This document shows, piece by piece, positions 11,772-60,664 of a stretch of 64,000 bases of DNA (position 1 is the first letter of the stretch; the number at the start of each line of letters is the position of its first letter). The position numbers were made by a program, and so were the translations under genes. Source of the DNA: Candidatus Omnitrophota bacterium (GTDB lineage Bacteria > Omnitrophota > Gorgyraeia > Gygaellales > Profunditerraquicolaceae); assembly GCA_043800555.1 (NCBI GenBank), contig JAZDMX010000007.1, forward strand, positions 26,683 to 90,682, written 5' to 3'. The notes beneath the pieces were generated by a model, which worked only from the letters and a program-made list of their open reading frames with translations, was not told the origin of the DNA and searched no databases.

Positions 11772-11826
11772 CCGTTCCATTCCCGCATTGGAATTGCAAG
11801 CAAATTCCAATGCGGGAATGGAATTT
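11772..11826. repeat. Palindromic intergenic repeat, copy A (CCCGCATTGGAA / TTCCAATGCGGG family)
   Basis: GTTCCATTCCCGCATTGGAATT-gcaagcaa-ATTCCAATGCGGGAATGGAA. A perfect inverted repeat between ilvN and ilvC. Confidence 0.8.
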
Positions 11827-11833
11827 TACGGTT

Positions 11834-12307
11834 TTAATTACTAATTGCCAATTTCCCGGTTCTAACCAATTCCTGAATCCCAAATTTGCTCAACTCATCC
11901 AGTAACGGCTTAATCTGCCCGCTATCCCCCACTGCCTCGATGATCGCGATATCAGCCTTATGCCGGACTATTTTACCGACATACTTCTTAAACACATTCT
12001 CCAACTTGCTCTTATTTTTAGCCGAATATCTTACTTTGGCCAAAACAAGTTCGCGGTCAACGTGCTCTTTCTTGGTAAAATCCGTAACGGTGATAACATC
12101 AATAAGTTTGTTCAGCTGCTTTTTTATCTGCTCTAAAATCTTAGCGTCTTTGGCCTCCACCACGATAGTCATATAGGATATAGCGGGGTCCAGAGTTTCA
12201 GAAACCGCTAACGAAGCAATGTTATAACCGCGGGCGCTGAATAATCCGGCAATACGCGCTAAAACTCCGAATTTGTTTTCGACTAAAACCGAGATTGTAT
12301 GCCTCAT
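11834..12307 (-). CDS. ilvN: Acetolactate synthase small (regulatory) subunit
   Basis: MRHTISVLVENKFGVLARIAGLFSARGYNI is the ACT-domain N-terminus typical of IlvN/IlvH. Confidence 0.85.
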   Translation of the reverse strand: MRHTISVLVENKFGVLARIAGLFSARGYNIASLAVSETLDPAISYMTIVVEAKDAKILEQIKKQLNKLIDVITVTDFTKKEHVDRELVLAKVRYSAKNKSKLENVFKKYVGKIVRHKADIAIIEAVGDSGQIKPLLDELSKFGIQELVRTGKLAISN

Positions 12308-12326
12308 CTTTTAGTTCTTAGCTAAA

Positions 12327-13991
12327 TTACGCCAATCCTCCGATAAACTGATTAATGGCCTGCCCTGCCGGAACCATAGGAAACACATTCTCTTCGGGCT
12401 CAACCCTAAAATCAATCATTACAGTATTATCCGCAGTAATTGCTTTCTCCAGCGCCGGGCGCACCTCTTCTTTTTTAGTTACCCGGATCCCAAGGCAACC
12501 GTAACTTTCAGCCAGCTTCACAAAATCCGGGCTGGTTATTCCTACCTGCGAATAACGCCTTTTGTAAAAAAGCTCCTGCCACTGCCGGACCATTCCCAAA
12601 TAGCCATTATTTAGAATCGCGATCTTCACGTTTATTTTATTGGCAACGCAAGTCGCAAGCTCCTGGATATTCATCTGGATTGAACCGTCTCCGGCGATAT
12701 CAAAAACTTCTTTCCCCGGGCAACCCACCTTTACCCCCATAGCCGCCGGCAACCCAAAACCCATTGTCCCTAATCCTCCCGAAGAAATAAATGTGCGGGG
12801 CTCGGTATATTTATACCACTGCGCTGCCCACATCTGGTTCTGCCCGACTTCAGTGGTTATAATCGCGCTGCCTTCGGTTATTTCATAAATCTGCTCAATT
12901 ATATACTGCGGCTTAAGCCCTCCGTCGTCTTTATATATTAGCGGGTGCTTCTTTTTCCAGCCTTCGACGGTTTTTAACCACTCTCCTGTATTCGGAGCCT
13001 TCTTGATTTCTTTCAGGAGTTCAATCAAAATATTCCGGGCATCCCCCACTATCGGAATATGCACGTTTACGTTCTTGCTGATAGAGGACGGGTCCACGTC
13101 GATATGGATAATCTTTGCGTAAGGGGCAAAGGCATCAAGCCGCCCCGTTACGCGGTCATCAAAACGGGCGCCCACCGCGATTATCAGGTCACTCTCCATA
13201 ATCGCATGGTTCGCATAAGCGGTCCCGTGCATGCCAAGCATACCCAATGATAACTCATGGGTAGCAGGAAAGGCGCCTATACCCATAAGGGTCCAGGTTA
13301 AAGGCGCATTGATTTTCTCCGCCAGTATCTTTAATTCCTTATGCGCCCCTGATGTAATTACGCCGCCGCCCGCATAGATTATCGGTTTTTTGGCAGAGGC
13401 GATAAGCTTAGCCGCTTTCTTGATCTGCCCGGGATGGCCAAAAAGCGTAGGGTTATAACTGCGTATCTCGGTATTTTCCGGCCAGATAAATACCGCATCC
13501 ATCATTTGGATATCCGAAGGAATATCTATCAACACAGGACCGGGCCTGCCGGTAGAAGCAATATAAAAAGCTTCCCGGATTATGCCCGCTAAATCCTTGA
13601 CATCCTTGACTAAATAATTATGTTTGGTTATCGGGCGGGTAATACCAGTGACATCGGCTTCCTGGAAGGCGTCGTTACCGATTAAAAAGCTCTTTACCTG
13701 GCCGGTAATCGCAACCATCGGGATAGAATCCATATAGGCATTAGCGATGCCGGTTACAAGATTTGTCGCTCCCGGGCCCGAAGTGGCTATGCACACCCCA
13801 ACTTTACCGGTTGAGCGGGAATAACCATCAGCGGCATGGGCCGCCCCCTGCTCATGCCGGGTAAGTATAAACCTGATATCCGAATCATAAAGGCTATCAA
13901 ATATAGGCAGGACCTGGCCGCCGGGATAGCCAAACATCACCTCTACGCCTTCGCGTTTCAACGACTCCAGTAATATTTGCGAACCTTTCAT
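12327..13991 (-). CDS. ilvB: Acetolactate synthase large subunit (ThDP-dependent)
   Basis: 554 aa. Conserved ThDP-binding GDG(S)x...NN motif (IAGDGSIQMNIQELAT...ILNNGYLGMVRQWQ). Confidence 0.9.
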   Translation of the reverse strand: MKGSQILLESLKREGVEVMFGYPGGQVLPIFDSLYDSDIRFILTRHEQGAAHAADGYSRSTGKVGVCIATSGPGATNLVTGIANAYMDSIPMVAITGQVKSFLIGNDAFQEADVTGITRPITKHNYLVKDVKDLAGIIREAFYIASTGRPGPVLIDIPSDIQMMDAVFIWPENTEIRSYNPTLFGHPGQIKKAAKLIASAKKPIIYAGGGVITSGAHKELKILAEKINAPLTWTLMGIGAFPATHELSLGMLGMHGTAYANHAIMESDLIIAVGARFDDRVTGRLDAFAPYAKIIHIDVDPSSISKNVNVHIPIVGDARNILIELLKEIKKAPNTGEWLKTVEGWKKKHPLIYKDDGGLKPQYIIEQIYEITEGSAIITTEVGQNQMWAAQWYKYTEPRTFISSGGLGTMGFGLPAAMGVKVGCPGKEVFDIAGDGSIQMNIQELATCVANKINVKIAILNNGYLGMVRQWQELFYKRRYSQVGITSPDFVKLAESYGCLGIRVTKKEEVRPALEKAITADNTVMIDFRVEPEENVFPMVPAGQAINQFIGGLA

Positions 13992-14071
13992 ATCTTTATC
14001 CCTTGGCCTCTTGGCTCAGAGTCCATAGATTATAGTCATCTTTTACTATGGACCATAAGCTAAACATTATA

Positions 14072-15724: not shown

Positions 15725-15770
15725 GGTTTTCTCCCTTCGGTCGAAAAAGCTGTTAGCTCATTGCTATTAG

Positions 15771-17096: not shown

Positions 17097-17112
17097 AGCA
17101 AATATTTCCTCC

Positions 17113-19328: not shown

Positions 19329-19353
19329 GAAATCTCCTTTAAGAGTGTTTAAT

Positions 19354-21402: not shown

Positions 21403-21456
21403 ATCTTGAACCGTTTTTCCCGGACATTGCTTAAGTTAAGGAGGTAAGCCCCGGGT

Positions 21457-23453: not shown

Positions 23454-23472
23454 TTTAAATATGCGTGTATTT

Positions 23473-33788: not shown

Positions 33789-33800
33789 ATTGATAACCGT

Positions 33801-33822
33801 AATTCCAAACCCGCATTGGAAT
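33801..33822. repeat. Half-unit of the palindromic repeat family, copy B
   Basis: AATTCCAAACCCGCATTGGAAT is identical to the right arm of copies C/E/F. It lies between the M48 peptidase start and the L27-like gene end. Confidence 0.6.
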
Positions 33823-33829
33823 CAGGTTT

Positions 33830-43716: not shown

Positions 43717-43800
43717 CGAATTTTTATTTTACTCCTAAAACCGCAAAGTTCAACAAGAAAATCTCTAATCTCTAATGCGCTAGCAAGATAAGAAAGGAAG

Positions 43801-43857
43801 ATGGGGACGTTTCTACTTTTCCCGGCCTGGTTACCAGAAAAGTAGAAACGTCCCCAT
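43801..43857 (-). terminator. Strong hairpin (20-bp perfect stem, 17-nt loop) terminating the atp operon
   Basis: ATGGGGACGTTTCTACTTTT-cccggcctggttaccag-AAAAGTAGAAACGTCCCCAT. U-rich flank on the minus strand (CUUCCUUUCUU) and TTTAT on the plus strand. Confidence 0.6.
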
Positions 43858-43873
43858 TTTATACCACTCCTGT

Positions 43874-47953: not shown

Positions 47954-47954
47954 A

Positions 47955-48497
47955 TTAAACCCTCACGGTCAAAAGCTTTTCCCTGAGATCACTTAATCCC
48001 CGAGCCACTGTCCCGTCAATTATGGTATTGCCGATAATAACCTGCACGCCCCCGAGCATGCTGCCGTCCAAATCTATATAGAACCTAAAACTCCGGTTAA
48101 ACTTCTTTTCCAGTCTTTCTTTTATCTCTTTCACCAAGTCCAAATCCAGCGGGAAACTTGTCCTGAGGATAGCTTCGGTCTCTCCCAGGTGCGCATACGC
48201 CACTCTTACGTAATCGGCGATATCGTGTAGCTTGTCAATGCGGTTCTTCTGAATGAGAAGTTTTAGAAACTGGCGGAATTCCGGAGAATAATCCTGCCCT
48301 AAAACTTTATCAATGAAATCAACCTTCTCGTTTTCCGAAAGCTCAAAGCTCCCCAAGAGCTGTTTAAATTCCGGATTAGCCTGCATAAGTAGCTTCAAGG
48401 TCTTAAATTCCTCCGCCGCCCTTTCAAGGCCGATCGTCTCTTTAGCAAAATCCATAAACGCCTCGGAGTATCTTTTTACTACGATTATTTCTCTCAT
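47955..48497 (-). CDS. atpH: F1 ATP synthase delta (OSCP) subunit
   Basis: 180 aa, helical N-terminal domain, in the atpF-atpH-atpA position. Confidence 0.75.
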
Positions 48498-48508
48498 TTT
48501 GCTTAAAA

Positions 48509-49003
48509 CTAAAGCTTATCTACCTCATCCAGAAAATCTCGCACCAGTTTCCTGTCCCCTGTTTCGGTAAGCTTCTCCTTTATTATGTTTTCGGAGGCCT
48601 TAATGGTCAAATCAACAATCTCATTCCTAAGCTCATCCTTGGCCCGGGTTAACTCGTATTTAATATTTTCTTTAGCGCTATCGATGATCTCCTGGGCTTG
48701 TATATGGGCGTCTTTACGAGCATCCTCTAAGATTACTCTTGACTCATTAACGGCATCGTGGATTTTGCGTTTGGCGACCTGTTCAATAGAAACAAGCTTG
48801 GCGTCATAATCCAGCCGGATCCTATCGATGTCATCCCGGGCTTCTTCTATTTTCTTGAATTCAGAGGCAATCCTTTCTTTGCGCTGATCCAGGAAACCAA
48901 GCACCTTCTTCCAGGCAAAGGCCCTAAGCAAGGCCAACAGGATCAAAAACCCTATTATCTGGGCGACAATTTCATTAGTGCTTAAAAGCTTGAGCAATTC
49001 CAT
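48509..49003 (-). CDS. atpF: Fo ATP synthase b subunit
   Basis: Single N-terminal TM helix (IIGFLILLALL) then a long charged coiled coil. Start moved to the ATG at 49003 (MELLKLL..., preceded by GGGGGGT). The ORF-track N-terminal 18 aa are translated from repeat copy C. Confidence 0.75.
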   Translation of the reverse strand: MELLKLLSTNEIVAQIIGFLILLALLRAFAWKKVLGFLDQRKERIASEFKKIEEARDDIDRIRLDYDAKLVSIEQVAKRKIHDAVNESRVILEDARKDAHIQAQEIIDSAKENIKYELTRAKDELRNEIVDLTIKASENIIKEKLTETGDRKLVRDFLDEVDKL

Positions 49004-49015
49004 CTTACCCCCCAG

Positions 49016-49071
49016 ATTCCAATGCGGGTTTGGAACAAGCAATAAAACCAGTTCCAAACCCGCATTGGAAT
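49016..49071. repeat. Palindromic intergenic repeat, copy C
   Basis: ATTCCAATGCGGGTTTGGAAC-aagcaataaaacca-GTTCCAAACCCGCATTGGAAT, between atpE and atpF. Confidence 0.8.
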
Positions 49072-49088
49072 TGGTTAAGACTCACAAA

Positions 49089-49319
49089 TTATAATTTTCC
49101 TGCTAACACAAACGCAAAAACCAGCGCGTAAATAGTCAAGGCCTCAATAAAAGCGCAACCGGTTGCCATGTTAATCAATATCTTAGTTGCCGCTTCCGGT
49201 TGCCTTCCAGTTGCTTCCATAGCCGAAGCAACTGCTTTGCCTAAGCCTAATCCTGAGCCAAACGCGGCCAAACCTAAACCTAAAGGCAATGCTAAAGCTA
49301 ATGCTACCTTATAATCCAT
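49089..49319 (-). CDS. atpE: Fo ATP synthase c subunit
   Basis: 76 aa, two TM helices, GxGxGxG loop motif (LGLGLAAFGSGLGLGKA) and conserved carboxylate helix (CAFIEALTIYALVFAF). Confidence 0.85.
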   Translation of the reverse strand: MDYKVALALALPLGLGLAAFGSGLGLGKAVASAMEATGRQPEAATKILINMATGCAFIEALTIYALVFAFVLAGKL

Positions 49320-49447
49320 TTTTTCCTCCTCAATTTTCCTGTAGTTTTCCCAAAAGATTAACCCCGGGCGCCCGATCTCCCCTGTCAGGCCCGATGAATA
49401 CTTTTCATTACCTTATCCCAAAAACTGGCCCCGAGGCCCCAGCTAAT

Positions 49448-50233
49448 TTAATGCCGGATAAGGGATTTCTCTTCTTTATCTTCGCCTTCGTGAGTTAAAA
49501 CGAGGGCAAAATATATGGTTGTTAAAAGGCTAAAAACTACTGCCTGGATTACTCCGGCTAATATCGCTAATAAAGCGCTAAACACTAATAACGGCACGCC
49601 TGCCAAGCCAAATCCGGCCAAGACGGATAAAAGCATATCGTCGCCCCAGATATTGCTGCGCAAACGTAAAGACAGGCTTATGGGCCTGACTAATTCCGAA
49701 ACAATGTGCAAAAAGAACATCATAGCCGGGACAAAAACCGAAAAAGCCAATATCCCCCGGGGCCTGCCCATCATATGGTCCAGGTAACCTAAAAACCCAA
49801 GTTCCTTAAAAGCGGTGTATTGCACGTAAATAAAAACGCAAATGGCCAAGGCCAAAGTAGTCGACCAGCTGGCGGTAGGAGACTTCATGAAAGGAATTAT
49901 TCCGAAAAGATTCATAAATATTATGTATATAAAAAGCGTGCCGATAAAAGGGGTATACCTTCTTGCCTTTGGCCCCAGTATCCCGCAAACAAAATCATCC
50001 AGGCCTCCGACAACTACCTCTACTGCGCTCTGAAGCCTTCCCGGAACCATTTTCTGTTTTCGCGATGCCAGGTATACGATCAAAGTAATAATAAAAACGG
50101 CAATAAGAGAGAATAAAACATTCTCCCAGAGATAAATTTGCTCCCCTAAATGGGTTTTTTTGCCGATTAATCCGGCTAATAATGAAACTAGATTCGGCAG
50201 TTCATGTTGGGCTTGTGCTGCTTCGACGGCCAT
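49448..50233 (-). CDS. atpB: Fo ATP synthase a subunit
   Basis: Polytopic; conserved Arg-containing helix LSLSLRLRSNIWGDDML. Position between atpI and atpE. Confidence 0.8.
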   Translation of the reverse strand: MAVEAAQAQHELPNLVSLLAGLIGKKTHLGEQIYLWENVLFSLIAVFIITLIVYLASRKQKMVPGRLQSAVEVVVGGLDDFVCGILGPKARRYTPFIGTLFIYIIFMNLFGIIPFMKSPTASWSTTLALAICVFIYVQYTAFKELGFLGYLDHMMGRPRGILAFSVFVPAMMFFLHIVSELVRPISLSLRLRSNIWGDDMLLSVLAGFGLAGVPLLVFSALLAILAGVIQAVVFSLLTTIYFALVLTHEGEDKEEKSLIRH

Positions 50234-50568
50234 ATTCCGGATACCCCCAAGACCAATATCACCAGAGACATTCCTGTTAATAAGCTCGCAACAGGAAGAA
50301 TATTCCAGGTGATGACCAAAAAACCCAATAAATATAATACCGGGAATTTGATCAAAAGCAATAATAAAAGCTTGTTCTTCGCCCGTTTGAGCACGGCTAT
50401 TTCCAATAAATTTATAGTGAGCAGGAAATTTGCCATTAACCAGCTGGCCCCAACGAGAATCCCGGCGCTAAAGGCAAAATTATGCCTAACCCCGAAAATT
50501 AAAGCAAGGCTAAATACCGCGATAACGCTTATATTTATAGGCCTATCCAGCCTCTGGCGCATCAGCAT
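50188..50568 (-). CDS. atpI: ATP synthase protein I (AtpI)-like small membrane protein
   Basis: 126 aa, four predicted TM helices, immediately upstream of and overlapping atpB. Confidence 0.5.
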   Translation of the reverse strand: MLMRQRLDRPINISVIAVFSLALIFGVRHNFAFSAGILVGASWLMANFLLTINLLEIAVLKRAKNKLLLLLLIKFPVLYLLGFLVITWNILPVASLLTGMSLVILVLGVSGIWPSKQHKPNMNCRI

Positions 50569-50804
50569 TCTTTTTTATCTATCCGGCTAACCAGCCTGAT
50601 TATCCTTATCGACTCCCTTATTCCTACCACGATGCCTATTGCGATACAGATAACGAGAGCATAAAAAGGCAGGTTGAATTTCTTTTGCAGATAATCGCCT
50701 AAGAAAAAACCGGACAAAGGAGAAACTGCCAGTATTATGGGAATGTACGAAATCATCCCCGCGATCTTAATCCTTTTATATAGATCCTGCCGGCTAGTTG
50801 CCAT
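50562..50804 (-). CDS. atpZ: AtpZ-like small membrane protein (putative Fo-associated subunit)
   Basis: 80 aa, two TM helices, first gene of the atp operon. Confidence 0.45.
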   Translation of the reverse strand: MATSRQDLYKRIKIAGMISYIPIILAVSPLSGFFLGDYLQKKFNLPFYALVICIAIGIVVGIRESIRIIRLVSRIDKKEC

Positions 50805-50871
50805 AAACTTAAAAATGGCGCCTGCACCCTTTTAAAAAGAGCCGAGGACGCCACTGTCCGATACTGGTAAT

Positions 50872-50899
50872 ATTCTATCTCCTATTTACCGCTTGTCAA
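50872..50899 (-). promoter_or_regulatory. Sigma70-like promoter candidate for the atp operon (TTGACA-16 bp-TAGAAT on the minus strand)
   Basis: Minus-strand reading CTTGACAAGCGGTAAATAGGAGATAGAATATT lies about 70 nt upstream of the atpZ ATG. Confidence 0.35.
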
Positions 50900-50901
50900 G
50901 G

Positions 50902-52881
50902 CTAAACTCTTATCGGCAATACGACAAAAGGTATTCCCTCCCTGTATAATTTTTTCTGCATGGCAAAAACCGTATAATTATGCAGGAACCGGATAGCAAA
51001 CGAATCCTGGGGGAAAATAAGCTGGCCGCCGAAAAATACCGAGTTTGGAAAACGCTCCAGGATTCGGGGCGCGATATTGCCTACCTCCTCTACCACGTCC
51101 GTCCCTACCTCAAATACTCCTTCGGCGTAAAATCCCTGCTTATTCATGAACTTGACGTAACGGATAATATCCGATTTGGCTTCTGTCTTCAACCTGCCGA
51201 CTTCGCTTGTGCCTTTAAAGTTCCCGGCATCAACTATACCTATCTGGACAAAAACAAAGTTTTTGAAGACGCCTCCGAATAATCTTATGATGCCAAACAA
51301 GGTATGCAAGCCTATGCCGTTAAAACCGCTTACCAGTAATACCGCGGTCTTGGACTTAGGATCAGGCTTTATCTCTTTGGCTAAATTAACAGCAGGATTC
51401 AATAGGGCCTCTTCGGCTGATTCTGCCACGGTAACCAGATTATTCAATCTATGCAGGAGCTTTGCGGTTTGATAATAATGCCGCTTTACAAGAATCGCCA
51501 CCACAATCAATGACCCGGTAAAAAACAGAGTGATCCACCCTCCTTCGCCAAACTTAACTATTATCATGGACACAAGTATAAAAGCGCACAAGATAAAGCC
51601 GGTGCCGTTAATAAAAAACTTTTTTATCCAGCCTTTAACCTGGGAACGCACCTGCCACCAATGCCGCACCATACCTGCTTGAGAAAAACAAAAAGTAATA
51701 AATACATTAATGCTATATAAAACTACCAAAAGCTTTACTGAACCGCCGGTTACAACCATAATCAGTAAAGCTAAACCGCCCATAATTAATATGCCATTCT
51801 GGGTTACTAATCTATCGCTTAAAGCTGAAAACCGGTTAGGAAACCAACGGTCGTTAGCCATGTTTGCCAGGACTGCGGGACCCCCAAGGAACCCTGTCTG
51901 GGCGGCTACAAAAAGCAGGGTAGCTTCTGAGAATAAAGCGACTAAGACAAATACGTAGCCCGATTTTCCCCATCCTGCGGTAACCTGTTCAAAAAGAGTG
52001 GCGTTCAATGTCTTACCAGGTTCCAGGGTGACCTGATAAAGTAAATAAGCGATCATCAAACCCAACACTACAAAAGACAGCGATATAGCCATATAACGCA
52101 TGGTTTTTTTGGCGGTTTTTACTTTTGGTTCCCGCAAAACGCTTGTACTGTTGCTAACCGCTTCAATACCGGTAAATGTTCCCGCGCCCATACTGTATGC
52201 CTTAAGAATCAGGAAAATAGTGCCCCACAAGCCTAAACTTGAAACGGTATTATGCACTTCGCCTGCCGTAGAAGCTATCAACGCGCTTGAACCCGATGAG
52301 TGCTTAAACAAACTATAAAAAATAATAAAAACGTGGGTAACTATAAAGGTAAGGAAAATCGGGGTTAATACCAATACTGATTCTTTTATCCCGCGCATAT
52401 TCAAGACCATAAGCGCAAAGACTGCTATAACCGCGAAAAACAGCCTATACGCGTGTAGGCCCATAGGCATAAGGCTAAACAACGCGTCCGCTCCGCTGGC
52501 AACAGAAATAGCGATAGTCAAGACATAATCGATAAGCAAGGCGCATCCGGAAACCATCCCCAGCGTAGGCGATAACAGTTTACTCCCCACTAAATATCCG
52601 CCTCCGCCTCCGGGAAATAACTCAATTATCTGCGAATAACTGGTGCTAATGACAAAAATAGTGAGCACTGTGCCTAAGGCGACAAAAATGCTTAAGTAGG
52701 TATGCGTTCCTAAAGCAAGAAAGGCTTCCTGAGGCCCGTAGCAAGATGAGGATAAGCCATCCGCGCCTAAACCTATCCAGGCAAAGAAAGCTATCAGCGA
52801 TATTTTATGAAAAATCGTGGAATCCTGAGGATCCCGCGACTTTCCTATTACCAGATTCTTTATCCGTTGAATCAGAGACAT
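50902..52881 (-). CDS. APC-superfamily transporter with C-terminal cytoplasmic domain, KimA-like (putative K+/H+ symporter)
   Basis: N-terminus IQRIKNLVIGKSRDP...ISLIAFFAWIGLGADGLSSSCYGPQEAF resembles the KimA/YdaO family signature LLIGKPLK...LAMLSSDALSSVAYGTEQ. Twelve TM helices plus an about 200-aa soluble tail. Confidence 0.55.
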   Translation of the reverse strand: MSLIQRIKNLVIGKSRDPQDSTIFHKISLIAFFAWIGLGADGLSSSCYGPQEAFLALGTHTYLSIFVALGTVLTIFVISTSYSQIIELFPGGGGGYLVGSKLLSPTLGMVSGCALLIDYVLTIAISVASGADALFSLMPMGLHAYRLFFAVIAVFALMVLNMRGIKESVLVLTPIFLTFIVTHVFIIFYSLFKHSSGSSALIASTAGEVHNTVSSLGLWGTIFLILKAYSMGAGTFTGIEAVSNSTSVLREPKVKTAKKTMRYMAISLSFVVLGLMIAYLLYQVTLEPGKTLNATLFEQVTAGWGKSGYVFVLVALFSEATLLFVAAQTGFLGGPAVLANMANDRWFPNRFSALSDRLVTQNGILIMGGLALLIMVVTGGSVKLLVVLYSINVFITFCFSQAGMVRHWWQVRSQVKGWIKKFFINGTGFILCAFILVSMIIVKFGEGGWITLFFTGSLIVVAILVKRHYYQTAKLLHRLNNLVTVAESAEEALLNPAVNLAKEIKPDPKSKTAVLLVSGFNGIGLHTLFGIIRLFGGVFKNFVFVQIGIVDAGNFKGTSEVGRLKTEAKSDIIRYVKFMNKQGFYAEGVFEVGTDVVEEVGNIAPRILERFPNSVFFGGQLIFPQDSFAIRFLHNYTVFAMQKKLYREGIPFVVLPIRV

Positions 52882-52897
52882 TTGCCAAAAACCCAGC

Positions 52898-52955
52898 TAA
52901 TTCCAATGCGGGTATGGAACCGGTTTAACCGGTTCCATACCCGCATTGGAATTAG
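52898..52955. repeat. Palindromic intergenic repeat, copy D (perfect 27-bp arms)
   Basis: CTAATTCCAATGCGGGTATGGAACCGG-TTTAA-CCGGTTCCATACCCGCATTGGAATTAG. Abuts the hppA stop codon; lies upstream of the KimA-like start. Confidence 0.85.
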
Positions 52956-55238
52956 CTAGAAACCAGTTTCTCCTCTTTTCTTAAAACTCAAGGCGCCATG
53001 CTTTGAATACAGTATGGCCCCGAATATCAAGACAACGCAAAGCACGATACTAATTATAACACCCGAGTTAGTTATGCGGTAATGAATAATTATGGGGGCG
53101 GCTAAAAGCGAAACCATATTGATTACCTTAATCATCGGGTTTAGCGCCGGGCCGGCAGTATCCTTTAAGGGATCTCCGACAGTGTCTCCGACAACAGAGG
53201 CCTTATGGCTCTCAGAGCCTTTTCCTCCGTATAAACCGTCTTCAATGGTCTTCTTGGCATTATCCCAGGCGCCGCCAGCGGTGGACATAAAAACCGCCAG
53301 GAGTTGGCCGGAAACAATTACGCCTGCGAGGAACCCGCCTAAAGCCTCAACCCTTAAAACCATCCCGATTAAAAGCGGGCTTAACACTGCGATTAAAGCC
53401 AACCCAATAAGTTCTTTTTGCGCGGATATCGTACAGATATCCACCGCCTTCTTGTAATCCGGCTTAACCTTACCTTCCATTAACCCCGGAGTATGGAACT
53501 GCTTACGCACTTCTTCAACAATCAAAGCCGCTGCTCGGGCAACGGAATTAATCATCAGGCTGGAGAATAAACAGGGGATCGCAGCGCCTATCAAAACGCC
53601 GACAAAGACAATCGGCTCAGATACCCTGATACCGGTTGTTAAGAGCCGCAAAGAATCAACTATTCCCATCTGCGCCTGGACCTTGGTAACATCGGTCAGA
53701 AAGGCGCCGAACAAAGAAACCGCGGCAATTACTGCCGAGCCTATGGCCACACCCTTAGTGATCGCCTTAGTAGTATTTCCTACGGCATCAAGGTCCGCCA
53801 TAATCTGGCGCGCCTGTGGCTCTAAATGCGCCATTTCACCAATGCCGTTAGCGTTATCCGCAATAGGCCCGAATGAATCCATAGCCACGTTATTGCCGGT
53901 TAAAGTAAGCATGCCGATACCGGTCATAGCTACCCCGTAAAGGATAAACACAACGGGTTGGCCCCAATAAATCAGGACGGCAGCCATAATGGTAAGGGCG
54001 ATAACTATAAACTGCCAGGCGCTGGATTCAAGGCCGATTGATATGCCGCGTAAAATCAGGGTGGCCGAACCTGTCCTGCTGGAAGAAGCGATTTCTTTTA
54101 CCGGCGCATGATGCGTATGGGTAAAATACTTGGTTACTTCGTCGATAACAATGGCCAAAACAATACCTATGGCCACAGAAAAGAAGGCCCTCCATTCATG
54201 CATATAATAGTGGGCTAAAATCAAGAACGCAGCTATTGAAATCGCGGCAGACGAATAAAACCCGCGATTAATGCTCTTAAACGCATCCTCTCCTTTACCC
54301 GCCTTTTTGCTCCCTTTAACCAGGTACGTCCCGATAATCGAAGAAAGGACTCCGATACCACGCACTAAAAGCGGAAAAACTATCCACTTCAATTCCCCGG
54401 TAATCGAAACTAACGCCAAGCCTAAGATTAATCCGGACACAATCGTTACTTCATATGACTCGAATATATCCGCGGCCATTCCCGCGCAATCGCCGACATT
54501 ATCCCCTACCAGGTCAGCGATAACCGCGGCATTCCTGGGATCGTCTTCAGGGATATTCTTTTCGACTTTCCCTACAAGATCGGCCCCTACATCGGCGGCC
54601 TTAGTATAAATACCTCCGCCGACGCGCATAAAGAGCGCAAGGAGCGTGCCGCCAAAACCAAAACCCAACAAAACATCGGGAGAAGCAATCCCGAAAATAA
54701 TGAATATGGCCGTGCCGCCTAAAAGGCCAAGGCCATCGGTAAGCATGCCGGTAATGGTCCCTGTGCGGTAAGCAATCTTTAGCGCCTCGGCAAAACTCCG
54801 GCGTGAAGCAGAAGCTACCCGGACATTGCCTTCAACTGCCATACGCATCCCGAATTGGCCTACGGTAAGTGAAAAAAATGCGCCCATAACGAATGCCACA
54901 GCCCTGCCAAAACCAACTATAAGTCGCACCAAGTCCGGAGTAAAATTACTAAAACGCTTTAATGCCTCTTCGCTCGGCGGAATGACATATACCGAAAAAA
55001 ACAAAACAGCGGTGAGGGCTAAAATTAAAGGAAGTATGCTTTTTAACTGGCGGCTTAGATAGGCGTCGGCGCCTGTGCGTATCGCATTCCAGACATCCTG
55101 CATGCCTTGAGTCCCCTTATCCTGGCTTAAAACCTGTTTGCGCAAGAAAAGCGCATAACCTAATCCCAAAAAAGCAATTAAAAGCACGCCCCAAATCGCA
55201 ACCATTTCAAAAGCACTCGCATTCATCAAACCTAGCAT
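52956..55238 (-). CDS. hppA: Membrane-bound proton-translocating pyrophosphatase, K+-independent type
   Basis: 760 aa. GGGIYTKAADVGADLVGKVE and DNVGDCAG motifs. GNTTKA (Lys instead of Ala) marks the K+-insensitive H+-PPase clade. Confidence 0.9.
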   Translation of the reverse strand: MLGLMNASAFEMVAIWGVLLIAFLGLGYALFLRKQVLSQDKGTQGMQDVWNAIRTGADAYLSRQLKSILPLILALTAVLFFSVYVIPPSEEALKRFSNFTPDLVRLIVGFGRAVAFVMGAFFSLTVGQFGMRMAVEGNVRVASASRRSFAEALKIAYRTGTITGMLTDGLGLLGGTAIFIIFGIASPDVLLGFGFGGTLLALFMRVGGGIYTKAADVGADLVGKVEKNIPEDDPRNAAVIADLVGDNVGDCAGMAADIFESYEVTIVSGLILGLALVSITGELKWIVFPLLVRGIGVLSSIIGTYLVKGSKKAGKGEDAFKSINRGFYSSAAISIAAFLILAHYYMHEWRAFFSVAIGIVLAIVIDEVTKYFTHTHHAPVKEIASSSRTGSATLILRGISIGLESSAWQFIVIALTIMAAVLIYWGQPVVFILYGVAMTGIGMLTLTGNNVAMDSFGPIADNANGIGEMAHLEPQARQIMADLDAVGNTTKAITKGVAIGSAVIAAVSLFGAFLTDVTKVQAQMGIVDSLRLLTTGIRVSEPIVFVGVLIGAAIPCLFSSLMINSVARAAALIVEEVRKQFHTPGLMEGKVKPDYKKAVDICTISAQKELIGLALIAVLSPLLIGMVLRVEALGGFLAGVIVSGQLLAVFMSTAGGAWDNAKKTIEDGLYGGKGSESHKASVVGDTVGDPLKDTAGPALNPMIKVINMVSLLAAPIIIHYRITNSGVIISIVLCVVLIFGAILYSKHGALSFKKRGETGF

Positions 55239-55297
55239 TTTGCTACTTCTCCTTTCCCGTTTCTATACCTACGCTCCTAGCCTTACTTTCTATAGAT

Positions 55298-55705
55298 TTA
55301 TTGAGCCGTCGTTGCCGCAATATTCAAATTCCTGACGCCCGCTGCATTTAAAATATCCAACACGCCTACTATGTCTTTAAAACGCACAAGCCTATCCGAA
55401 CTTACGATTACCCCGAGAGAAGGATTATTCTTGCGCCTTAAACCAATCTTTTCCTTTAACTCCTTGCGAGTCACCACAGTTGCGTCCAGATATACCACGC
55501 CTTCATCAGTTATGGCTATATTAACCGGGCTCATATCATTTACCGGGGCCGCGCTGGAAGCCTGCGGTAAGTTTACTTTAAGGCTCGATTGAAGTATTAA
55601 CGGCGTTGTTATCATGAATATTATCAAAAGAACTAAAATAACGTCGGTAAAAGGAGTTATGTTTATCTCGGCGATTAATCTTTGTTTGGGCTTGCGTAAG
55701 TTCAT
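55298..55705 (-). CDS. exbD: ExbD/TolR family biopolymer transport protein
   Basis: INITPFTDVILVLLIIFMITTP is the signature N-terminal TM helix. 135 aa. Confidence 0.8.
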   Translation of the reverse strand: MNLRKPKQRLIAEINITPFTDVILVLLIIFMITTPLILQSSLKVNLPQASSAAPVNDMSPVNIAITDEGVVYLDATVVTRKELKEKIGLRRKNNPSLGVIVSSDRLVRFKDIVGVLDILNAAGVRNLNIAATTAQ

Positions 55706-56367
55706 TTCCGCTTAATGGCCGGGCCTTCGGCCCCGCCAGATGTTGATGGCGAGCGTAACCGGACCATCAATAAATCCATTGTTTCAGAAGCGCACAATTC
55801 CATATCGGTAATAAAATTATCTATCGACTTACTGAAATAATTATACGCGATAACCGCGGGTACCGCAACACAAAGGCCCATAGCCGTGCAAGCCAAAGAT
55901 TCGGATATACCGCTGATAACTACGCTTATACCTCCGGAGCCAGCCATCGATATATCGTGAAAAGCCCGGATAATTCCCAGAACCGTGCCAAAAAGACCGA
56001 TATAAACAGCCGTGCTTCCGATTGTCCCTACTACGCTTGTATATCTCTCAAGTTTAACCGTTTCAATCGCTATCTCTCTTTCCATGGTGTTGGATATGAG
56101 CATTTCGCTATGGCCGGCTAAATTCAGCCCCGCATACACGACGCTTGAAAAAGGGGTGTCCGTATTCTTGCAGGTATCCAGGGCCCTGGTTGTATTCCCT
56201 TTTTCCAGTTCTCCCGATACCTCCGACATAAAATCCGTTCTTTTTATCCTGGATCTCTTACGGTAATAAAAATACCTCTCCATGATAATAGCTAACGATA
56301 AAATCGAGCAAGCTAAAAGTATATATATCGTTAAACCGCCGCTTCGAAGCATCTGCCATATGGTCAT
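55702..56367 (-). CDS. exbB: MotA/TolQ/ExbB proton-channel family protein
   Basis: Three TM helices with conserved ...GLFGTVLGIIRAF... region; translationally coupled to exbD. Confidence 0.8.
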   Translation of the reverse strand: MTIWQMLRSGGLTIYILLACSILSLAIIMERYFYYRKRSRIKRTDFMSEVSGELEKGNTTRALDTCKNTDTPFSSVVYAGLNLAGHSEMLISNTMEREIAIETVKLERYTSVVGTIGSTAVYIGLFGTVLGIIRAFHDISMAGSGGISVVISGISESLACTAMGLCVAVPAVIAYNYFSKSIDNFITDMELCASETMDLLMVRLRSPSTSGGAEGPAIKRK

Positions 56368-56428
56368 TTATTGCCTCCCTATCAAAATAAAATAGCGCAT
56401 TATAGATCGCGGGCAAATCCGCCATCCC

Positions 56429-57031
56429 TTATCTACCATGCATCACTCTCTTTCTCTTCTTGGCGTAAACTAAATTCAGTATCTTGTATGCCAAAAATAT
56501 CAATATTGCAAAAATAACGAGAATTAAAACCACCTTTGTATATTTCACGATTGCCGCCCCGAAAAGGGCCAAAAGCAATATCCTGGGAATTACTCCGATT
56601 AATGTGCAAAATACGAATGGCACAAACGGTATGCAGGTAATGCCCGCGGCAATTGAAAAAACCTTAAACGGGACTATCGGAATCACCCTGCCGATAAGAA
56701 CGCTCATTACTCCGTATTTTTTGGCAAACTCCTCTGCCTTATAAATATGCTGGGGCTTAATAAGTATGAACCTGCCAAACTTCAATAATACCGGCATAGC
56801 AGCATACCTGCCGAGGCAATACCCTACCATGGCCCCCAAGGTCGAACCTAGCGAACCGAAGATAAGGACTGAGCCTAAAGGGATTCCGATTGCGCCGGCG
56901 CTCACGATGATCACTTCAGACGGTATCGGCACTATGCATGATTCAAAGAACATGGCCAGAAAAACGCCTAAATCCCCGAATTTAGGGATTAGGCCGGTTA
57001 AATCATGCTGCAGCAAACTGGATAAATGCAC
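56429..57031 (-). CDS. DedA/TVP38 family membrane protein
   Basis: FLAMFFESCIVPIPSEVIIVSAGA matches the DedA re-entrant motif region. 200 aa. Confidence 0.75.
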   Translation of the reverse strand: MHLSSLLQHDLTGLIPKFGDLGVFLAMFFESCIVPIPSEVIIVSAGAIGIPLGSVLIFGSLGSTLGAMVGYCLGRYAAMPVLLKFGRFILIKPQHIYKAEEFAKKYGVMSVLIGRVIPIVPFKVFSIAAGITCIPFVPFVFCTLIGVIPRILLLALFGAAIVKYTKVVLILVIFAILIFLAYKILNLVYAKKRKRVMHGR

Positions 57032-57040
57032 AATCCCCTT

Positions 57041-57397
57041 CTATTGCTTATAATGAAAAACTACTCTCAGTTTATTTTTATCCAATTGCGCCAACTCTAC
57101 CTCTTTAGTCGCCTCCAGCGCCTTTTTCGGGCAGGAATCTACGCACTGCGCGCAATAAATGCAACGGCTCAGATCAAACACAGCTTCAAATTTATTCTCG
57201 CCGGTTTTATTAATGGTAATGGCATTGGTCGGGCAATCCCGCATGCACATTTTGCAGCCAATGCATTTTTCGGGATCAAATTTAATTTTCCCCCGGAACC
57301 TATCCGGCATCTCCAACTTTTGCGCCGGATATAAATTCGTAGCCGGTTTCTTAAAGATAGAACCCAAGACCTCCCTCAACATCTTTGCCGGTCTCAT
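57041..57397 (-). CDS. 2x[4Fe-4S] ferredoxin-like subunit (NuoI/MbhN-like) of the membrane-bound hydrogenase
   Basis: Two CxxCxxCxxxCP motifs: CIGCKMCMRDCP and CIYCAQCVDSCP. Confidence 0.75.
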   Translation of the reverse strand: MRPAKMLREVLGSIFKKPATNLYPAQKLEMPDRFRGKIKFDPEKCIGCKMCMRDCPTNAITINKTGENKFEAVFDLSRCIYCAQCVDSCPKKALEATKEVELAQLDKNKLRVVFHYKQ

Positions 57398-58335
57398 TTT
57401 AAAAAGGCTCCTTTCAAGATAAGGTTAAGCAAAAGTTGCAATAGCGCTAAGGGAACCAGGAATTTCCAACAAAAACTAATCATCTGGTCTATGCGCAGGC
57501 GCGCCACAACTGTGCGTAATAACGCGATCAAACTTACGATACATAAGACCTTGATAACAAAAATCATAAACCCTAACACGGGATTTACGTTTAAGCCAAA
57601 AGGAAAAAATACCAACGCCAACAAAGCGCTTCCGGCAATCATTTCTACGTCCAGGGTCATTCTTAAAAAAGCAAGCATCCTCCCGCTATATTCGGTAAAA
57701 CCTCCGGCGACTACTTCTGTTTCGGCTTCCGGGATATCAAAAGGCACCTTTTCAAGCTTGCCCAGCAAACTAACTAAAGATACGCCAAAACCTAACAAGT
57801 TAAACGCCCAAAACCACGGATGCGCCATATAAAAATCCGCTAATTTCTTTAACGACCAGGTATCTGCCAGGAGCGCCGAAGAAAGAATGCCCATAAACAG
57901 CGGGACCTCATAGGCAAATAACTGGGTAAGCGAGCGCACTGAACCGATCCTGGAATATAACGAAGTTGAATACCAGCCGCCGATAAAAAATGCCAAAGTT
58001 GGCAGCGTCAACAAATAAAGCACAACTATGATATCGCCGTTAAAAGAAAAAAGCGCGCCTGTTTTCCAAAGAGGAATGTAGAGAAACGCGGTTACTGCCG
58101 AAGCCAAAGCAAATATCGGGGCAATTTTAAACATCTTAGGGTTGGACTCAGCCGGGATAATATCTTCTTTAGCCAAAAGCTTGATAAAATCCGCGAAAGG
58201 CTGAAACCACGGCGGCCCGACCCTGTTTTGCAACCGGGCATAAATCTTCCGATCGATGAATTCCGCGATTAAGGCGAAAATGACCAAGAAAATCAACCCC
58301 GGGAACACAATGATATAAAATAATGATCCTGCCAT
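57394..58335 (-). CDS. NuoH/MbhM-like integral membrane subunit of the membrane-bound hydrogenase
   Basis: MAGSLFYIIVFPGLIFLVIFALIAEFIDRKIYARLQNRVGPPWFQPFADFIKLL aligns with the NuoH N-terminus. Start set to the ATG at 58335 (GAGG SD). The ORF-track GTG at 58362 runs toward repeat E. Confidence 0.8.
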   Translation of the reverse strand: MAGSLFYIIVFPGLIFLVIFALIAEFIDRKIYARLQNRVGPPWFQPFADFIKLLAKEDIIPAESNPKMFKIAPIFALASAVTAFLYIPLWKTGALFSFNGDIIVVLYLLTLPTLAFFIGGWYSTSLYSRIGSVRSLTQLFAYEVPLFMGILSSALLADTWSLKKLADFYMAHPWFWAFNLLGFGVSLVSLLGKLEKVPFDIPEAETEVVAGGFTEYSGRMLAFLRMTLDVEMIAGSALLALVFFPFGLNVNPVLGFMIFVIKVLCIVSLIALLRTVVARLRIDQMISFCWKFLVPLALLQLLLNLILKGAFLK

Positions 58336-58364
58336 AATTGCCTCAACACCCTCTCTAACCACAA

Positions 58365-58420
58365 AATTCCAATGCGGGTTTGGAACGTGCTTAAAACCTA
58401 TTCCAAACCCGCATTGGAAT
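58365..58420. repeat. Palindromic repeat, copy E, located inside the hydrogenase operon (between large subunit and NuoH-like genes)
   Basis: AATTCCAATGCGGGTTTGGAAC-gtgcttaaaaccta-TTCCAAACCCGCATTGGAAT. The loop is the reverse complement of the loop of copy F. Confidence 0.85.
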
Positions 58421-58428
58421 AGGTTTAA

Positions 58429-59664
58429 TTACTTCGATAACCTATCCTGAAGCTTTTTATTAAGCGGGGTAAAATCTATTCCCCGTTCCCTATGCCATTG
58501 TACGCTGTAAGCATGCAAAGCGGACCAGTTAACTACTTTGTCCCCGGCGCAATCCTGCTCCCTCAAACGGACCATCCGGTCAGTGCAGGAAAAACACGGG
58601 TCAATTGCCGCAATCACTATCGGCATGTCTGCCAAGAATCTATCGCGAAGCATATGCTTTACCGCCTGGACATTGGCTAAAGTAGGAGCCCTGATTTTCA
58701 CCCTATCCGGTTTTTCAGTGCCGTTAGATTTAACATAATGCACATCTTCTCCACGCGGAGCCTCATAACGGCTGATTGCCTCTCCGGCAGGGATCTTACG
58801 CGGCGCCCTTACTGCTACCGGGCCATCGGGCAAATTCTTAAGCGCCTGGCGGATAATTTTATAACTCTCCAAGAGTTCTTTCACCCGCACCACCGTCCTG
58901 CCGTAAACATCGCAATGATCATCGGTAACCACATTAAAAGAAAGCTCCCCGTAAGCGGCATAAGGATCATCGGCCCGGACATCCCGCTTAACTCCGCTTG
59001 CCCGGGCAGTCGGCCCTACTGCGTCAAGCCGCAAAACATCTTCACGCAAAAGTATTCCTACCCCGGATAATCTTTTAATTATAGTAGTTTCTTCGGTAGC
59101 AACCTCAATATAATATTTGGTCCTTTCTTCGAGAGTTTCCAGCCCTTTAAGTATCTCCTGCGCCTGTTGGGGGCTTATGTCGCGCCGGACTCCGCCAATA
59201 GTATTCATCCCGTAATTAACCCTATTGCCGCTAATAGAAGCGAGTATATCCATTACCACTTCCCTGTCCCTCCATGAATACATAAGCAAGGTATCGAAAC
59301 CGATTTCATGTCCGGCGACACCCAACCATAAAAGATGGCTATGGATTCTTTCTAATTCAGCAATGATGGTGCGGATATACAAGGCCCGAGGCGGGACAGC
59401 TAATCCGGCAATCTCTTCAACCGCTTGGATAAAACACGTAGAATGAGAATGCGAACAGATACCGCAGACGCGTTCGATAAGGTAGATATCCTGTATATAA
59501 GTCCTCTCTTCGGCTGCCTTTTCTATGCCGCGATGATTATAGCCCAAGCGGATATCCACGCCAAGGATCTTCTCGCCTTTAAGCGCGACGCTAAAACCTT
59601 CCGGTTCTTTTAAGGCCGGGTGCTGAGGGCCAATTGGAATCTTAAAATCTGGTGAATTACGCAT
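58429..59664 (-). CDS. Group 4 [NiFe]-hydrogenase large subunit (NuoD/MbhL/EchE-like) retaining both Ni-Fe ligand motifs
   Basis: L1 motif RVCGICSHSH (C-G-I-C-S-x-x-H) near the N-terminus and L2 motif DPCFSCTDR near the C-terminus. Confidence 0.8.
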   Translation of the reverse strand: MRNSPDFKIPIGPQHPALKEPEGFSVALKGEKILGVDIRLGYNHRGIEKAAEERTYIQDIYLIERVCGICSHSHSTCFIQAVEEIAGLAVPPRALYIRTIIAELERIHSHLLWLGVAGHEIGFDTLLMYSWRDREVVMDILASISGNRVNYGMNTIGGVRRDISPQQAQEILKGLETLEERTKYYIEVATEETTIIKRLSGVGILLREDVLRLDAVGPTARASGVKRDVRADDPYAAYGELSFNVVTDDHCDVYGRTVVRVKELLESYKIIRQALKNLPDGPVAVRAPRKIPAGEAISRYEAPRGEDVHYVKSNGTEKPDRVKIRAPTLANVQAVKHMLRDRFLADMPIVIAAIDPCFSCTDRMVRLREQDCAGDKVVNWSALHAYSVQWHRERGIDFTPLNKKLQDRLSK

Positions 59665-60136
59665 TTTTGCCTACCTCGCCTTCTTTAGCCGGCTTGGCTT
59701 TCCAGTCTTTCCTCAAAGGATACTCGCCGGCTGGCCAGTCATCGGTCAAGGGATACCGATTACCAGAGCCTAAACCATCAACCTCGGCTCCGAACAAATC
59801 CACTAACTCCCTCTCGTAAATCTCCGCACCGGGAAAATAAGGAATAACCGTCTTGATTACTGGAGCGTTTTTTGGGGCAGCCGTCTTTAGATTAACCAAA
59901 ATCCCTGAATCAGCTGCCAAATGGTATATAAATCCCAATGTTTCCTGCTCATCCAAGCCGGTTATCGTGCATAAATGCGAAAATCGCAGGTCCTTGGCTA
60001 AATACGCAAAAACCGGCATAAAATTATCCAAACCGACTTCAACGGATATGCGCCGGGGCCGGATTATCCTGACGGAATCGCTAAGATAATTAAACTTGTT
60101 AACTAGGCTCTCTTTAATTTCTTCTTCCTGGGACAT
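59657..60136 (-). CDS. NuoC/MbhK-like 30-kDa subunit of the hydrogenase
   Basis: 159 aa. ...LCTITGLDEQE...ERELVDLFG is the NuoC-family core (ERE-x2-D-x-FG). Confidence 0.75.
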   Translation of the reverse strand: MSQEEEIKESLVNKFNYLSDSVRIIRPRRISVEVGLDNFMPVFAYLAKDLRFSHLCTITGLDEQETLGFIYHLAADSGILVNLKTAAPKNAPVIKTVIPYFPGAEIYERELVDLFGAEVDGLGSGNRYPLTDDWPAGEYPLRKDWKAKPAKEGEVGKNA

Positions 60137-60138
60137 AA

Positions 60139-60597
60139 TTACCTCCCGCTCTTCTTAATTTCTTCTTTTTCTTCAAGGCTAGTCAAAAGTTTGACCACGC
60201 CATCAATAATTGCCTTGGGGCTGGCCGGGCAACCCGGGATATATGCTGAGACAGGAATAACTTTATCTATACCCGAAGCTACGTTATAACATTTATCAAA
60301 CACGCCGCCGGAACAAGCGCAGGTACCAACCGCCACCACGAATTTCGGCTCAGGCATCTGTTCATAAATGCGGCGCAGCCTGTCTTCTATCTGTTTGGTT
60401 ACCGGGCCTGAACAAACCAAAACATCCGCATGGCGAGGCGTTCCTTTCAAGACCACCCCAAAACGCTCCAAATCATACCTTGGGGTTAAGGCAGCAATGA
60501 TTTCAATATCGCAAGCATTGCAGGCTCCGGTATTGAAATGCAAAATCCACGGTGATTTTATCCTTGCCCAAGTAACTATTTTCTTGACTAAACCCAT
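60139..60597 (-). CDS. Hydrogenase small subunit (NuoB/MbhJ-like, proximal [4Fe-4S] cluster)
   Basis: GACNACDIE (CxxC, hydrogenase-type rather than NuoB CC) ... GTCACSGG ... IPGCPASP. Start set to the ATG at 60597 (MGLVKK...); the ORF-track 20-aa extension is a translation of repeat copy F. Confidence 0.8.
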   Translation of the reverse strand: MGLVKKIVTWARIKSPWILHFNTGACNACDIEIIAALTPRYDLERFGVVLKGTPRHADVLVCSGPVTKQIEDRLRRIYEQMPEPKFVVAVGTCACSGGVFDKCYNVASGIDKVIPVSAYIPGCPASPKAIIDGVVKLLTSLEEKEEIKKSGR

Positions 60598-60607
60598 AAT
60601 CTTAACC

Positions 60608-60664
60608 AGTTCCAATGCGGGTTTGGAATAGGTTTTGAGCACGTTCCAAACCCGCATTGGAACT
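60608..60664. repeat. Palindromic repeat, copy F, inside the hydrogenase operon (between NuoA-like and small-subunit genes)
   Basis: AGTTCCAATGCGGGTTTGGAAT-aggttttgagcac-GTTCCAAACCCGCATTGGAACT. Same unit as copy E in opposite orientation. Confidence 0.85.

Follow-up and report, generated by a model that had tools for sequence, protein, structure and literature searches.

What are the palindromic repeats that stand between the genes of an otherwise compact bacterial genome segment, and how did they get there? The question is raised by a 64,000-nucleotide stretch of a Candidatus Omnitrophota genome (GenBank assembly GCA_043800555.1, contig JAZDMX010000007.1, positions 26,683 to 90,682; here called the window), in which six copies of one repeat are found. 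An earlier note on this stretch had described them as a lineage-specific family of intergenic hairpins that behave like repetitive extragenic palindromic (REP) sequences, bacterial interspersed mosaic elements (BIMEs) or miniature inverted-repeat transposable elements (MITEs). We assign them, with a probability of roughly 85%, to a family of REPs and REPINs (pairs of inverted REPs that form a single long hairpin) that a REP-associated tyrosine transposase (RAYT) mobilises in trans. This family of small mobile hairpin elements is previously undescribed; the kind of element is already known.

Omnitrophota are an uncultured phylum with compact genomes, and work on REPINs and RAYTs has so far dealt mostly with Proteobacteria and less so with Cyanobacteria. 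A full-text literature search for Omnitrophota together with RAYT returned nothing relevant, and Omnitrophica are unmentioned in PMC6006769. The assignment now places a REPIN-RAYT system in Omnitrophota, with a non-canonical REP that has no GT[AG]G tetranucleotide, a conserved loop and covarying stems. As elements of this kind are well known, it adds a new family and leaves the overall picture unchanged.

The palindromes are built from a 19-nt hairpin unit

The 12-mer TTCCAATGCGGG occurs 11 times on the two strands of the window at no more than one mismatch, against an expectation of 0.61 and a maximum of 3 in 100 shuffled sequences. It is part of a 19-nt unit, TTCCAATGCGGG(TT/TA/AA)TGGAA, whose 11 instances form five inverted doublets and one singlet; no further copy is present in the window at up to three mismatches. 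The unit, which we call U (TTCCAATGCGGGTTTGGAA), folds into a hairpin with the stem TTCCAA/TTGGAA and the 7-nt loop TGCGGGT, and its opposite strand, U', displays the loop ACCCGCA. An outer foot, AACC...GGTT, often extends the unit, which makes the basic element a hairpin of about 19-35 nt. Among 126 instances from the window and from other genomes, AACC with 2-4 variable bases on one side and 2-5 variable bases with GGTT on the other are very often present, and the variable bases between foot and unit are mostly complementary. The six copies are the following, with perfect palindromes taken from an inverted-repeat scan and RNA folding energies (z scores in brackets) calculated for the transcribed − strand.

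Copy A, 11769-11833: tail-to-tail doublet; AACC 11769-11772, U' 11775-11793 (TTCCATTCCCGCATTGGAA), 11-nt spacer, U 11805-11823 (TTCCAATGCGGGAATGGAA), GGTT 11830-11833; palindrome 11775-11795/11803-11823, 21-nt arms, 7 nt between; −38 kcal/mol (−7.1).
Copy B, 33795-33828: single unit at 33803-33821 (TTCCAAACCCGCATTGGAA on the + strand), with AACC 33795-33798 and GGTT 33825-33828; a single hairpin of −13.9 kcal/mol (−3.1).
Copy C, 49016-49076: doublet; U 49017-49035, 16-nt spacer CAAGCAATAAAACCAG, U' 49052-49070, GGTT 49073-49076; palindrome 49016-49036/49051-49071, 21-nt arms, 14 nt between; −44.3 kcal/mol (−8.9).
Copy D, 52895-52957: 63-nt perfect palindrome; units 52901-52919 and 52933-52951, both of the TA variant; arms 52895-52925/52927-52957, 31 nt each, 1 nt between; −61.6 kcal/mol (−13.7).
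Copy E, 58366-58426: doublet; U 58367-58385, spacer CGTGCTTAAAACCTA, U' 58401-58419, GGTT 58423-58426; palindrome 58366-58385/58401-58420, 20-nt arms, 15 nt between; −36.8 kcal/mol (−7.8).
Copy F, 60604-60664: the doublet of copy E in opposite orientation; AACC 60604-60607, units 60610-60628 and 60644-60662; palindrome 60608-60628/60644-60664, 21-nt arms, 15 nt between; −37.5 kcal/mol (−7.9).

At four sites the order is U-spacer-U', the spacer being 13-16 nt long; copy A alone in the window has the reverse order, U'-11 nt-U, and copy B is a footed singlet. The departures from the consensus in copies A and D (GGGAATGG and GGGTATGG) are each mirrored in both arms, copy A having the identical AA/TT variant on the two sides, so that the long hairpins remain perfect. 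All doublets fold as RNA with energies of −37 to −62 kcal/mol (z from −7 to −13.7).

The spacers of copies C, E and F align with one another. The + strand spacer of copy E (CGTGCTTAAAACCTA) and the − strand spacer of copy F (CGTGCTCAAAACCTA) are identical at 14 of 15 positions, while the + strand of the copy F spacer gives no match. Since the two spacers match as reverse complements, one asymmetric doublet has been copied as a unit and placed in both orientations, as the earlier note had deduced from the loops. That note had also located all six copies to within a few bases, as the 12-mer search and the inverted-repeat scan bear out, and had recognised the hairpins as perfect; its sizes need adjusting, the arms being 20-31 nt rather than 20-27 nt and the spacers 1-15 nt rather than 5-14 nt.

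The same unit brackets a transposase gene in related genomes

The loci fetched from other genomes (designated by L numbers) were searched by tblastn with a sequence of E. coli YafM. Matching open reading frames (ORFs) lie between two units in L084, L040, L072, L097, L017 and L008, and partial matches were obtained in L009 and L074. An ORF of about 220 amino acids with the unit on both sides is present in L084, L040, L072, L017, L008 and L112, as well as in the metagenome loci L121-L123, L126, L130 and L134. The gene of a ~220-amino-acid HUH/Tyr protein thus lies between identical units, an arrangement known as a REPtron, in 12 or more related genomes or metagenome contigs. A RAYT-like gene of the kind that the earlier note suggested looking for was in this way found beside identical units in related genomes. 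The protein is conserved (MPYRK...YCLMPTHIHLVL...LTRYIHLNP...), and at both its start and its end the gene is no more than a few tens of bases away from a unit. The flanking units are usually inverted, with U' upstream and U downstream. Copy A, whose permuted, tail-to-tail arms the earlier note had seen correctly and had ascribed to the junction of two units or to an inner palindrome, has this same U'-then-U layout and is not the junction of two doublets.

Several comparisons identify the protein as a RAYT-like enzyme. It scores 34-40 bits with the Pfam model Y1_Tnp, for which the gathering score is 23, and its top NCBIfam model is REP_Tyr_transpos at 55-63 bits, with the IS200 model at 16 bits. 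The top sequence match in the Protein Data Bank (PDB) is 4ER8, TnpA-REP of E. coli (E = 6e-4), a structure described as a REP-associated tyrosine transposase bound to a REP hairpin. An AlphaFold model of the protein (mean confidence score, pLDDT, 90.8) again has 4ER8 as its top Foldseek match (E = 7.9e-7, TM score 0.67 on the target), followed at ranks 2-5 by the IS608 and ISDra2 transposases of the IS200/IS605 group of insertion sequences. All 36 homologues compared share the histidines of the HUH motif (H89 and H91), a catalytic-type tyrosine (Y149) and N153. The clade is divergent, with an extra C-terminal region of about 50 amino acids.

About 2,000 members of this RAYT family are detectable; their named sources are nearly always Omnitrophota, and a member is typically seen on one contig only. 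Most clusters at 90% identity are found on 1-3 contigs, and none of the sampled assemblies, of which none is a complete genome, has two copies. Two of the loci show variations on the gene itself. In L072 (1133-1825) the ORF runs past its usual ...HLILE end into the downstream unit and gains the residues PEPNSNAGLE. In L153 (3001-3905), and likewise in L155, a second, partial copy, covering the C-terminal 45 residues, lies about 130 nt downstream of the full gene.

Hairpin loops are conserved and stems covary beside diverging enzymes

The comparison was extended to 80 further RAYT loci from metagenomes and to four of named homologues. Nearly every RAYT gene among them has a matching hairpin on both sides, and the sequence of this hairpin varies from locus to locus. 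Exact copies of U stand beside RAYTs that are as little as 53-71% identical to each other. Other loci keep the loop ACCCGCA on altered stems: TCCCAA/TTGGGA in L116 and L117, TTGCAA/TTGCAA in L144, TAACAA/TTGTTA in L124, GCCCAA/TTGGGC in L137 and TTGCAT/ATGCAA in L200. In a hand-picked alignment of 11 hairpins, 92.7% of the cells pair, against 68.6% in shuffles; eight of the ten stem pairs have changed on both sides, and pairing falls below 50% when the partner strand is slid by one column.

Where an enzyme recognises a folded single strand, a conserved loop on covarying stems is to be expected, and such recognition is the known mode of action of TnpA-REP and of the IS200/IS605 enzymes (PMC3479197, PMC6006769). 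A natural series of stem variants, each accompanied by its own transposase, could reveal how RAYTs read hairpins.

More distant RAYTs are flanked by unrelated hairpins, which are GTAG-tagged in L118, L125 and L128, and many of which keep an (A)ACC...GGT(T) foot. An example of the GTAG-tagged type is GTAGCCACTCC-cgg-GGAGTGGCTAC; one such locus is L118, 9880-10745. Other hairpin classes at such distant loci (L118, L125, L128, L132, L145, L149) are long GTAC-centred palindromes that contain GCGGG/CCCGC, and the CCCGC motif recurs across the hairpin classes of the RAYT family.

Four of the copies occupy sites that are empty in close relatives

Nearly all genes of the window lie on the − strand, and every copy is found between two co-directional genes. 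All six sites are intergenic, 0-17 nt past a − strand stop codon, in agreement with the earlier description. As just ~4.6% of the window is non-coding under a generous ORF call (~95% coding), this placement is far from random.

Three relatives, whose NuoD proteins are 87-91% identical to that of the window, agree with it in gene order over the region that runs from nuo to the H+-pyrophosphatase gene and, in two of them, on to atpA. The comparison was made on DNA for L119 and L120 (NuoD 87-89%) and on the gene table for the P0123 contig (NuoD 91%). Neither L119 nor L120 contains the unit at up to four mismatches in its syntenic 21 kb. The neighbours of each copy, all on the − strand, and the corresponding gaps are as follows.

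Copy A: stop of the acetolactate synthase small-subunit gene (11834-12307) and start of the ketol-acid reductoisomerase gene (10757-11749).
Copy B: stop of a small L27-like ORF (33830-34069) and start of an M48 peptidase gene (32700-33788).
Copy C: stop of atpE, c subunit (49089-49319), and start of atpF, b subunit (~49003); gap of 14 nt in L119, 27 nt in the P0123 contig and ~85 nt in the window.
Copy D: the H+-pyrophosphatase gene (52956-55238), whose stop codon is overlapped by 2 nt, and the amino-acid permease gene (50902-52881) downstream; gap of 5-6 nt in the P0123 contig and L119, 74 nt in the window.
Copy E: stop of a nuoD-like gene (58429-59664) and start of a nuoH-like gene (~58346); gap of 2 nt in all three relatives, 82 nt in the window.
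Copy F: stop of a nuoA-like gene (60668-61000) and start of a nuoB-like gene (~60597); gap of 4-23 nt in the relatives, ~70 nt in the window.

The reverse case is provided by L093, which is syntenic with 36.4-38.6 kb of the window at ~68% nucleotide identity and has a U'-U doublet where the window has 75 unrelated bases. Because the orthologous sites are empty in the relatives and the L093 doublet stands where the window has none, the copies are insertions that different lineages gained independently. When four filled sites were compared with their empty counterparts, nothing convincing as a target-site duplication or a consensus target emerged; what may be an AATT repeat at the nuoD/nuoH site does not recur at the others. 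The small ORF 5' of copy B (33830-34069) resembles a divergent ribosomal protein L27, as judged by its translation alone.

For annotation, perfect palindromes of 50-63 nt account for unusual spaces between the genes of core operons; assemblies from short reads will probably break at them, and they could pass for regulatory RNAs.

The unit is widespread in Omnitrophota

A scan of one genome per species with the pattern TTCCAATGCGGGNNTGGAA matched at least 111 stretches. At least 28 assemblies labelled Omnitrophota or Omnitrophica carry the unit, the exact TT form in at least 25 and variant forms in at least three more. Among the matches listed, several Omnitrophota assemblies have the unit at 4-7 separate loci, and several metagenome-assembled genomes under other labels also have it, likewise in AT-rich intergenic surroundings. 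Listed matches in phyla other than Omnitrophota with an NN other than TT were rejected as chance, 26 of 28 lying inside long ORFs; they fit the chance expectation of about 70 matches (17 fixed bases, 596 Gb, two strands). In Omnitrophota-type loci 92 of 101 units (~91%) are outside crudely called genes. Single units lie on either strand relative to the upstream gene without bias (17 versus 11), and convergent gaps contain at most a mild excess of units (7/54 against a background of 23/344).

In the other Omnitrophota loci singles outnumber doublets by 59 to 12, and the doublets are mostly of the U'-U type with spacers of 0-19 nt (n = 10), with one U-U' case. As singlets dominate and U-U' is rare elsewhere, the U-(13-16 nt)-U' form of the window looks like a local expansion. 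The word lineage-specific in the earlier note accordingly does not hold for the 19-nt unit, which many Omnitrophota genomes share; what is particular to this lineage is where the copies have inserted and their pairing as doublets with a spacer of 13-16 nt. In L061 (278-7642; Omnitrophota contig JAGLUN010000051) five single units within 8 kb have longer shared flanks (...ttaccgTTCCAAACCCGCATTGGAAcaatggtt...), and the unit may there belong to a longer repeated element.

A model of RAYT-driven spread and its alternatives

Combining these results, we propose the following model. The units are non-autonomous and are most likely read as single-stranded DNA hairpins by the RAYT, a predicted Y1-type HUH/Tyr enzyme of about 220 amino acids, which most likely cuts the hairpin units and rejoins them; in related genomes the gene of this putative enzyme is itself bracketed by the same units. 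The asymmetric doublet, in which a spacer of 13-16 nt separates a unit from a footed unit in inverted orientation, has spread in this genome whole and in either orientation, its landing sites being short gaps just past stop codons, some of them within the atp and nuo operons. On transcription the doublets would give very stable RNA hairpins without a U tract, and a side effect on the stability or processing of the polycistronic atp and nuo mRNAs is plausible. Binding, cleavage and rejoining of single-stranded REP are known for E. coli TnpA-REP (PMC3479197, PMC6006769). By analogy with the known TnpA-REP/REPIN systems (PMC3116915, PMC3479197, PMC5581495), the RAYT of Omnitrophota would perform the same single-strand cleavage and joining, and a RAYT gene would be expected elsewhere in this genome.

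Several points weigh against this model. The canonical 5' foot of a REP is missing: neither GT[AG]G nor CGTC stands beside the unit in any of the 126 aligned instances, which, given that a GT[AG]G tetranucleotide at the hairpin foot defines canonical tagged REPs (PMC6006769, PMC3733652), places the family outside the GTAG- and CGTC-tagged superfamilies. The protein also falls short of the equivalog cut-off of REP_Tyr_transpos (80 bits). The covariation alignment was picked by hand, from hairpins preselected for at least five paired bases next to the loop, so only its outer pairs are an unbiased test. The window itself has no RAYT gene, the best tblastn match to 54 Omnitrophota RAYTs and to sequences of E. 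coli YafM and Salmonella IS200 having an E value of 0.018, which is noise. Because of this, finally, the element may be a relic in this genome.

The relic status is the core of the alternative that survives best, which we consider improbable though worth keeping in sight: the copies would be fossil REPINs of the same origin whose cognate RAYT has been lost here, immobile and tolerated. Besides the 64 kb without a RAYT, both the units and a RAYT gene are missing from the syntenic 21 kb of L119 and L120, so the system is patchy. However, arms that are 100% complementary over 20-31 nt and E and F spacers that differ at one position in 15 argue for recent copying, and RAYT genes, being typically single-copy (PMC5581495), will seldom lie inside any given 64-kb piece.

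A wider reading, which goes beyond RAYT-driven spread and which we regard as doubtful, joins several of these threads. Omnitrophota and neighbouring candidate phyla would have an old, separate REPIN-RAYT lineage, in which the loop rather than a GT[AG]G foot is the recognition determinant and the exact 19-mer has stayed constant while the transposase diverged to 53% identity; the atp and nuo doublets would have taken on a role as RNA hairpins between cistrons, adjusting the stoichiometry of the subunits.

It is much less probable that the repeats are host regulatory RNA hairpins (intercistronic stabilisers, processing sites or attenuators), selected in place and immobile. All copies are intergenic hairpins of the transcribed strand with very stable folds, right after stop codons, and some stand in operons of complexes with unequal subunit numbers (atpE/atpF, nuoA/nuoB). 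Yet three relatives with the same operons have short gaps in their place, one doublet occurs in both orientations relative to transcription, single units are without strand bias, and the identical sequence brackets a transposase gene. The repeats also lack a U tract and an Rfam family: at gathering thresholds the Rfam search of the window returned three tRNAs only, and at E values up to 1 it added only sub-threshold eukaryotic microRNA-hairpin models, which are generic matches to long hairpins.

Intrinsic terminators were ruled out separately, as no T/U run follows the hairpins and the copies are inside operons; a terminator scan of 48000-61500 gave neither a T run nor a terminator-like call for the copies there.

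Less probable again is that a conventional DDE insertion sequence gave rise to the repeats as MITEs, whose terminal inverted repeats would form the palindrome. Short, palindromic, intergenic and multicopy elements would fit this description, but the filled and empty sites show no consistent direct duplication, hairpin units of 19-35 nt also occur singly, and the sole transposase that is repeatedly adjacent is an HUH/Y1 enzyme. The earlier note's comparison with REP/BIME or MITE-like elements is supported by the unit-flanked RAYT-like Y1 gene in related Omnitrophota, the empty orthologous sites and the two orientations.

Neisseria and Haemophilus uptake sequences are often inverted pairs after genes, and the symmetry of TTCCAA-N7-TTGGAA recalls a dimeric operator, but binding sites of a DNA-binding protein, or a DNA-uptake signal in inverted pairs, are the least probable source of the repeats, since conservation is highest in the asymmetric 7-nt centre and the symmetric arms covary, which fits a hairpin loop and not an operator, orthologous positions are empty, the downstream genes are functionally incoherent, and the unit is linked to the RAYT.

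A CRISPR array was rejected on the inverted pairs and the irregular spacing of copies scattered 2-22 kb apart. Nor are the copies parts of a single larger mobile element, the second possibility raised in the earlier note, there being no target-site duplications and no longer shared element around them. The doublet had no match in phage records.

Comparison with known hairpin-transposase systems

The closest parallels are the REP/BIME elements of E. coli with their RAYT, TnpA-REP (YafM; 4ER8; PMC3479197). Both systems have short extragenic hairpins, single or in inverted pairs, between co-directional genes, and in both an HUH/Tyr Y1 transposase gene, single in E. coli, is bracketed by the same units. 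The Omnitrophota units differ in lacking the 5' GT[AG]G foot, in place of which they have the conserved 7-nt loop and the AACC/GGTT foot, and the Omnitrophota protein has about 220 residues against 165, with 16% identity over the structural alignment.

With the REPINs of Pseudomonas fluorescens SBW25 (PMC3116915) the elements share inverted doublets that fold into one long hairpin, correlated changes in the arms, and a doublet, not a singlet, as the apparent copied unit. The spacers are 1-16 nt here, whereas the inter-REP spacings reported there are 71 and 110 bp, and in other Omnitrophota loci singlets prevail.

Families without the canonical tags have been described before: TnpA-Y1 subclass 2.6, mostly from Bacteroidetes (PMC6006769), and the 'untagged' REP-like families (PMC3733652) also have RAYT-like genes bracketed by hairpins without GT[AG]G or CGTC, and in these, as in Omnitrophota, copies of the hairpin are dispersed in the genome. 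With IS200/IS605 elements the Omnitrophota system has in common an HUH/Y1 fold and recognition of single-stranded hairpins, both predicted on the Omnitrophota side. The differences from IS200/IS605 are that none of the sampled Omnitrophota assemblies, which are not complete genomes, showed two copies of the gene, that the hairpins far outnumber it, that its flanking hairpins are usually inverted, and that the IS200 model gives a low score.

Other features of the window

Two further inverted repeats stand apart from the REP family. One, at 5536-5581, is a 46-nt perfect palindrome without a spacer (CTCATCAGCGGGCCCTGCCGCTT / AAGCGGCAGGGCCCGCTGATGAG), flanked by two − strand genes that are 151 nt apart; it bears no relation to the REP unit and is absent from all 200 fetched loci. 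The other, at 43798-43860, has 24-nt arms that are 96% complementary with 15 nt between them, and lies downstream of the last ORFs of the atp operon. TTTT follows one of its arms, and it is possibly the terminator of that operon rather than a REP.

The GC skew is negative in each 4-kb bin of the window (1-64000; −0.08 to −0.17). Together with the prevalence of − strand genes, this fits a single replication arm with genes co-oriented with replication.

The nuo-like genes belong to a complex-I-like operon at 55298-63957 with the order (antiporter-like L/M/N)-J-K-A-B-C-D-H-I, which is the same in three relatives. Genes for NuoE, NuoF and NuoG are absent from the syntenic gene tables of the relatives, and the D subunit of the operon bears the NCBI name 'nickel-dependent hydrogenase large subunit'.

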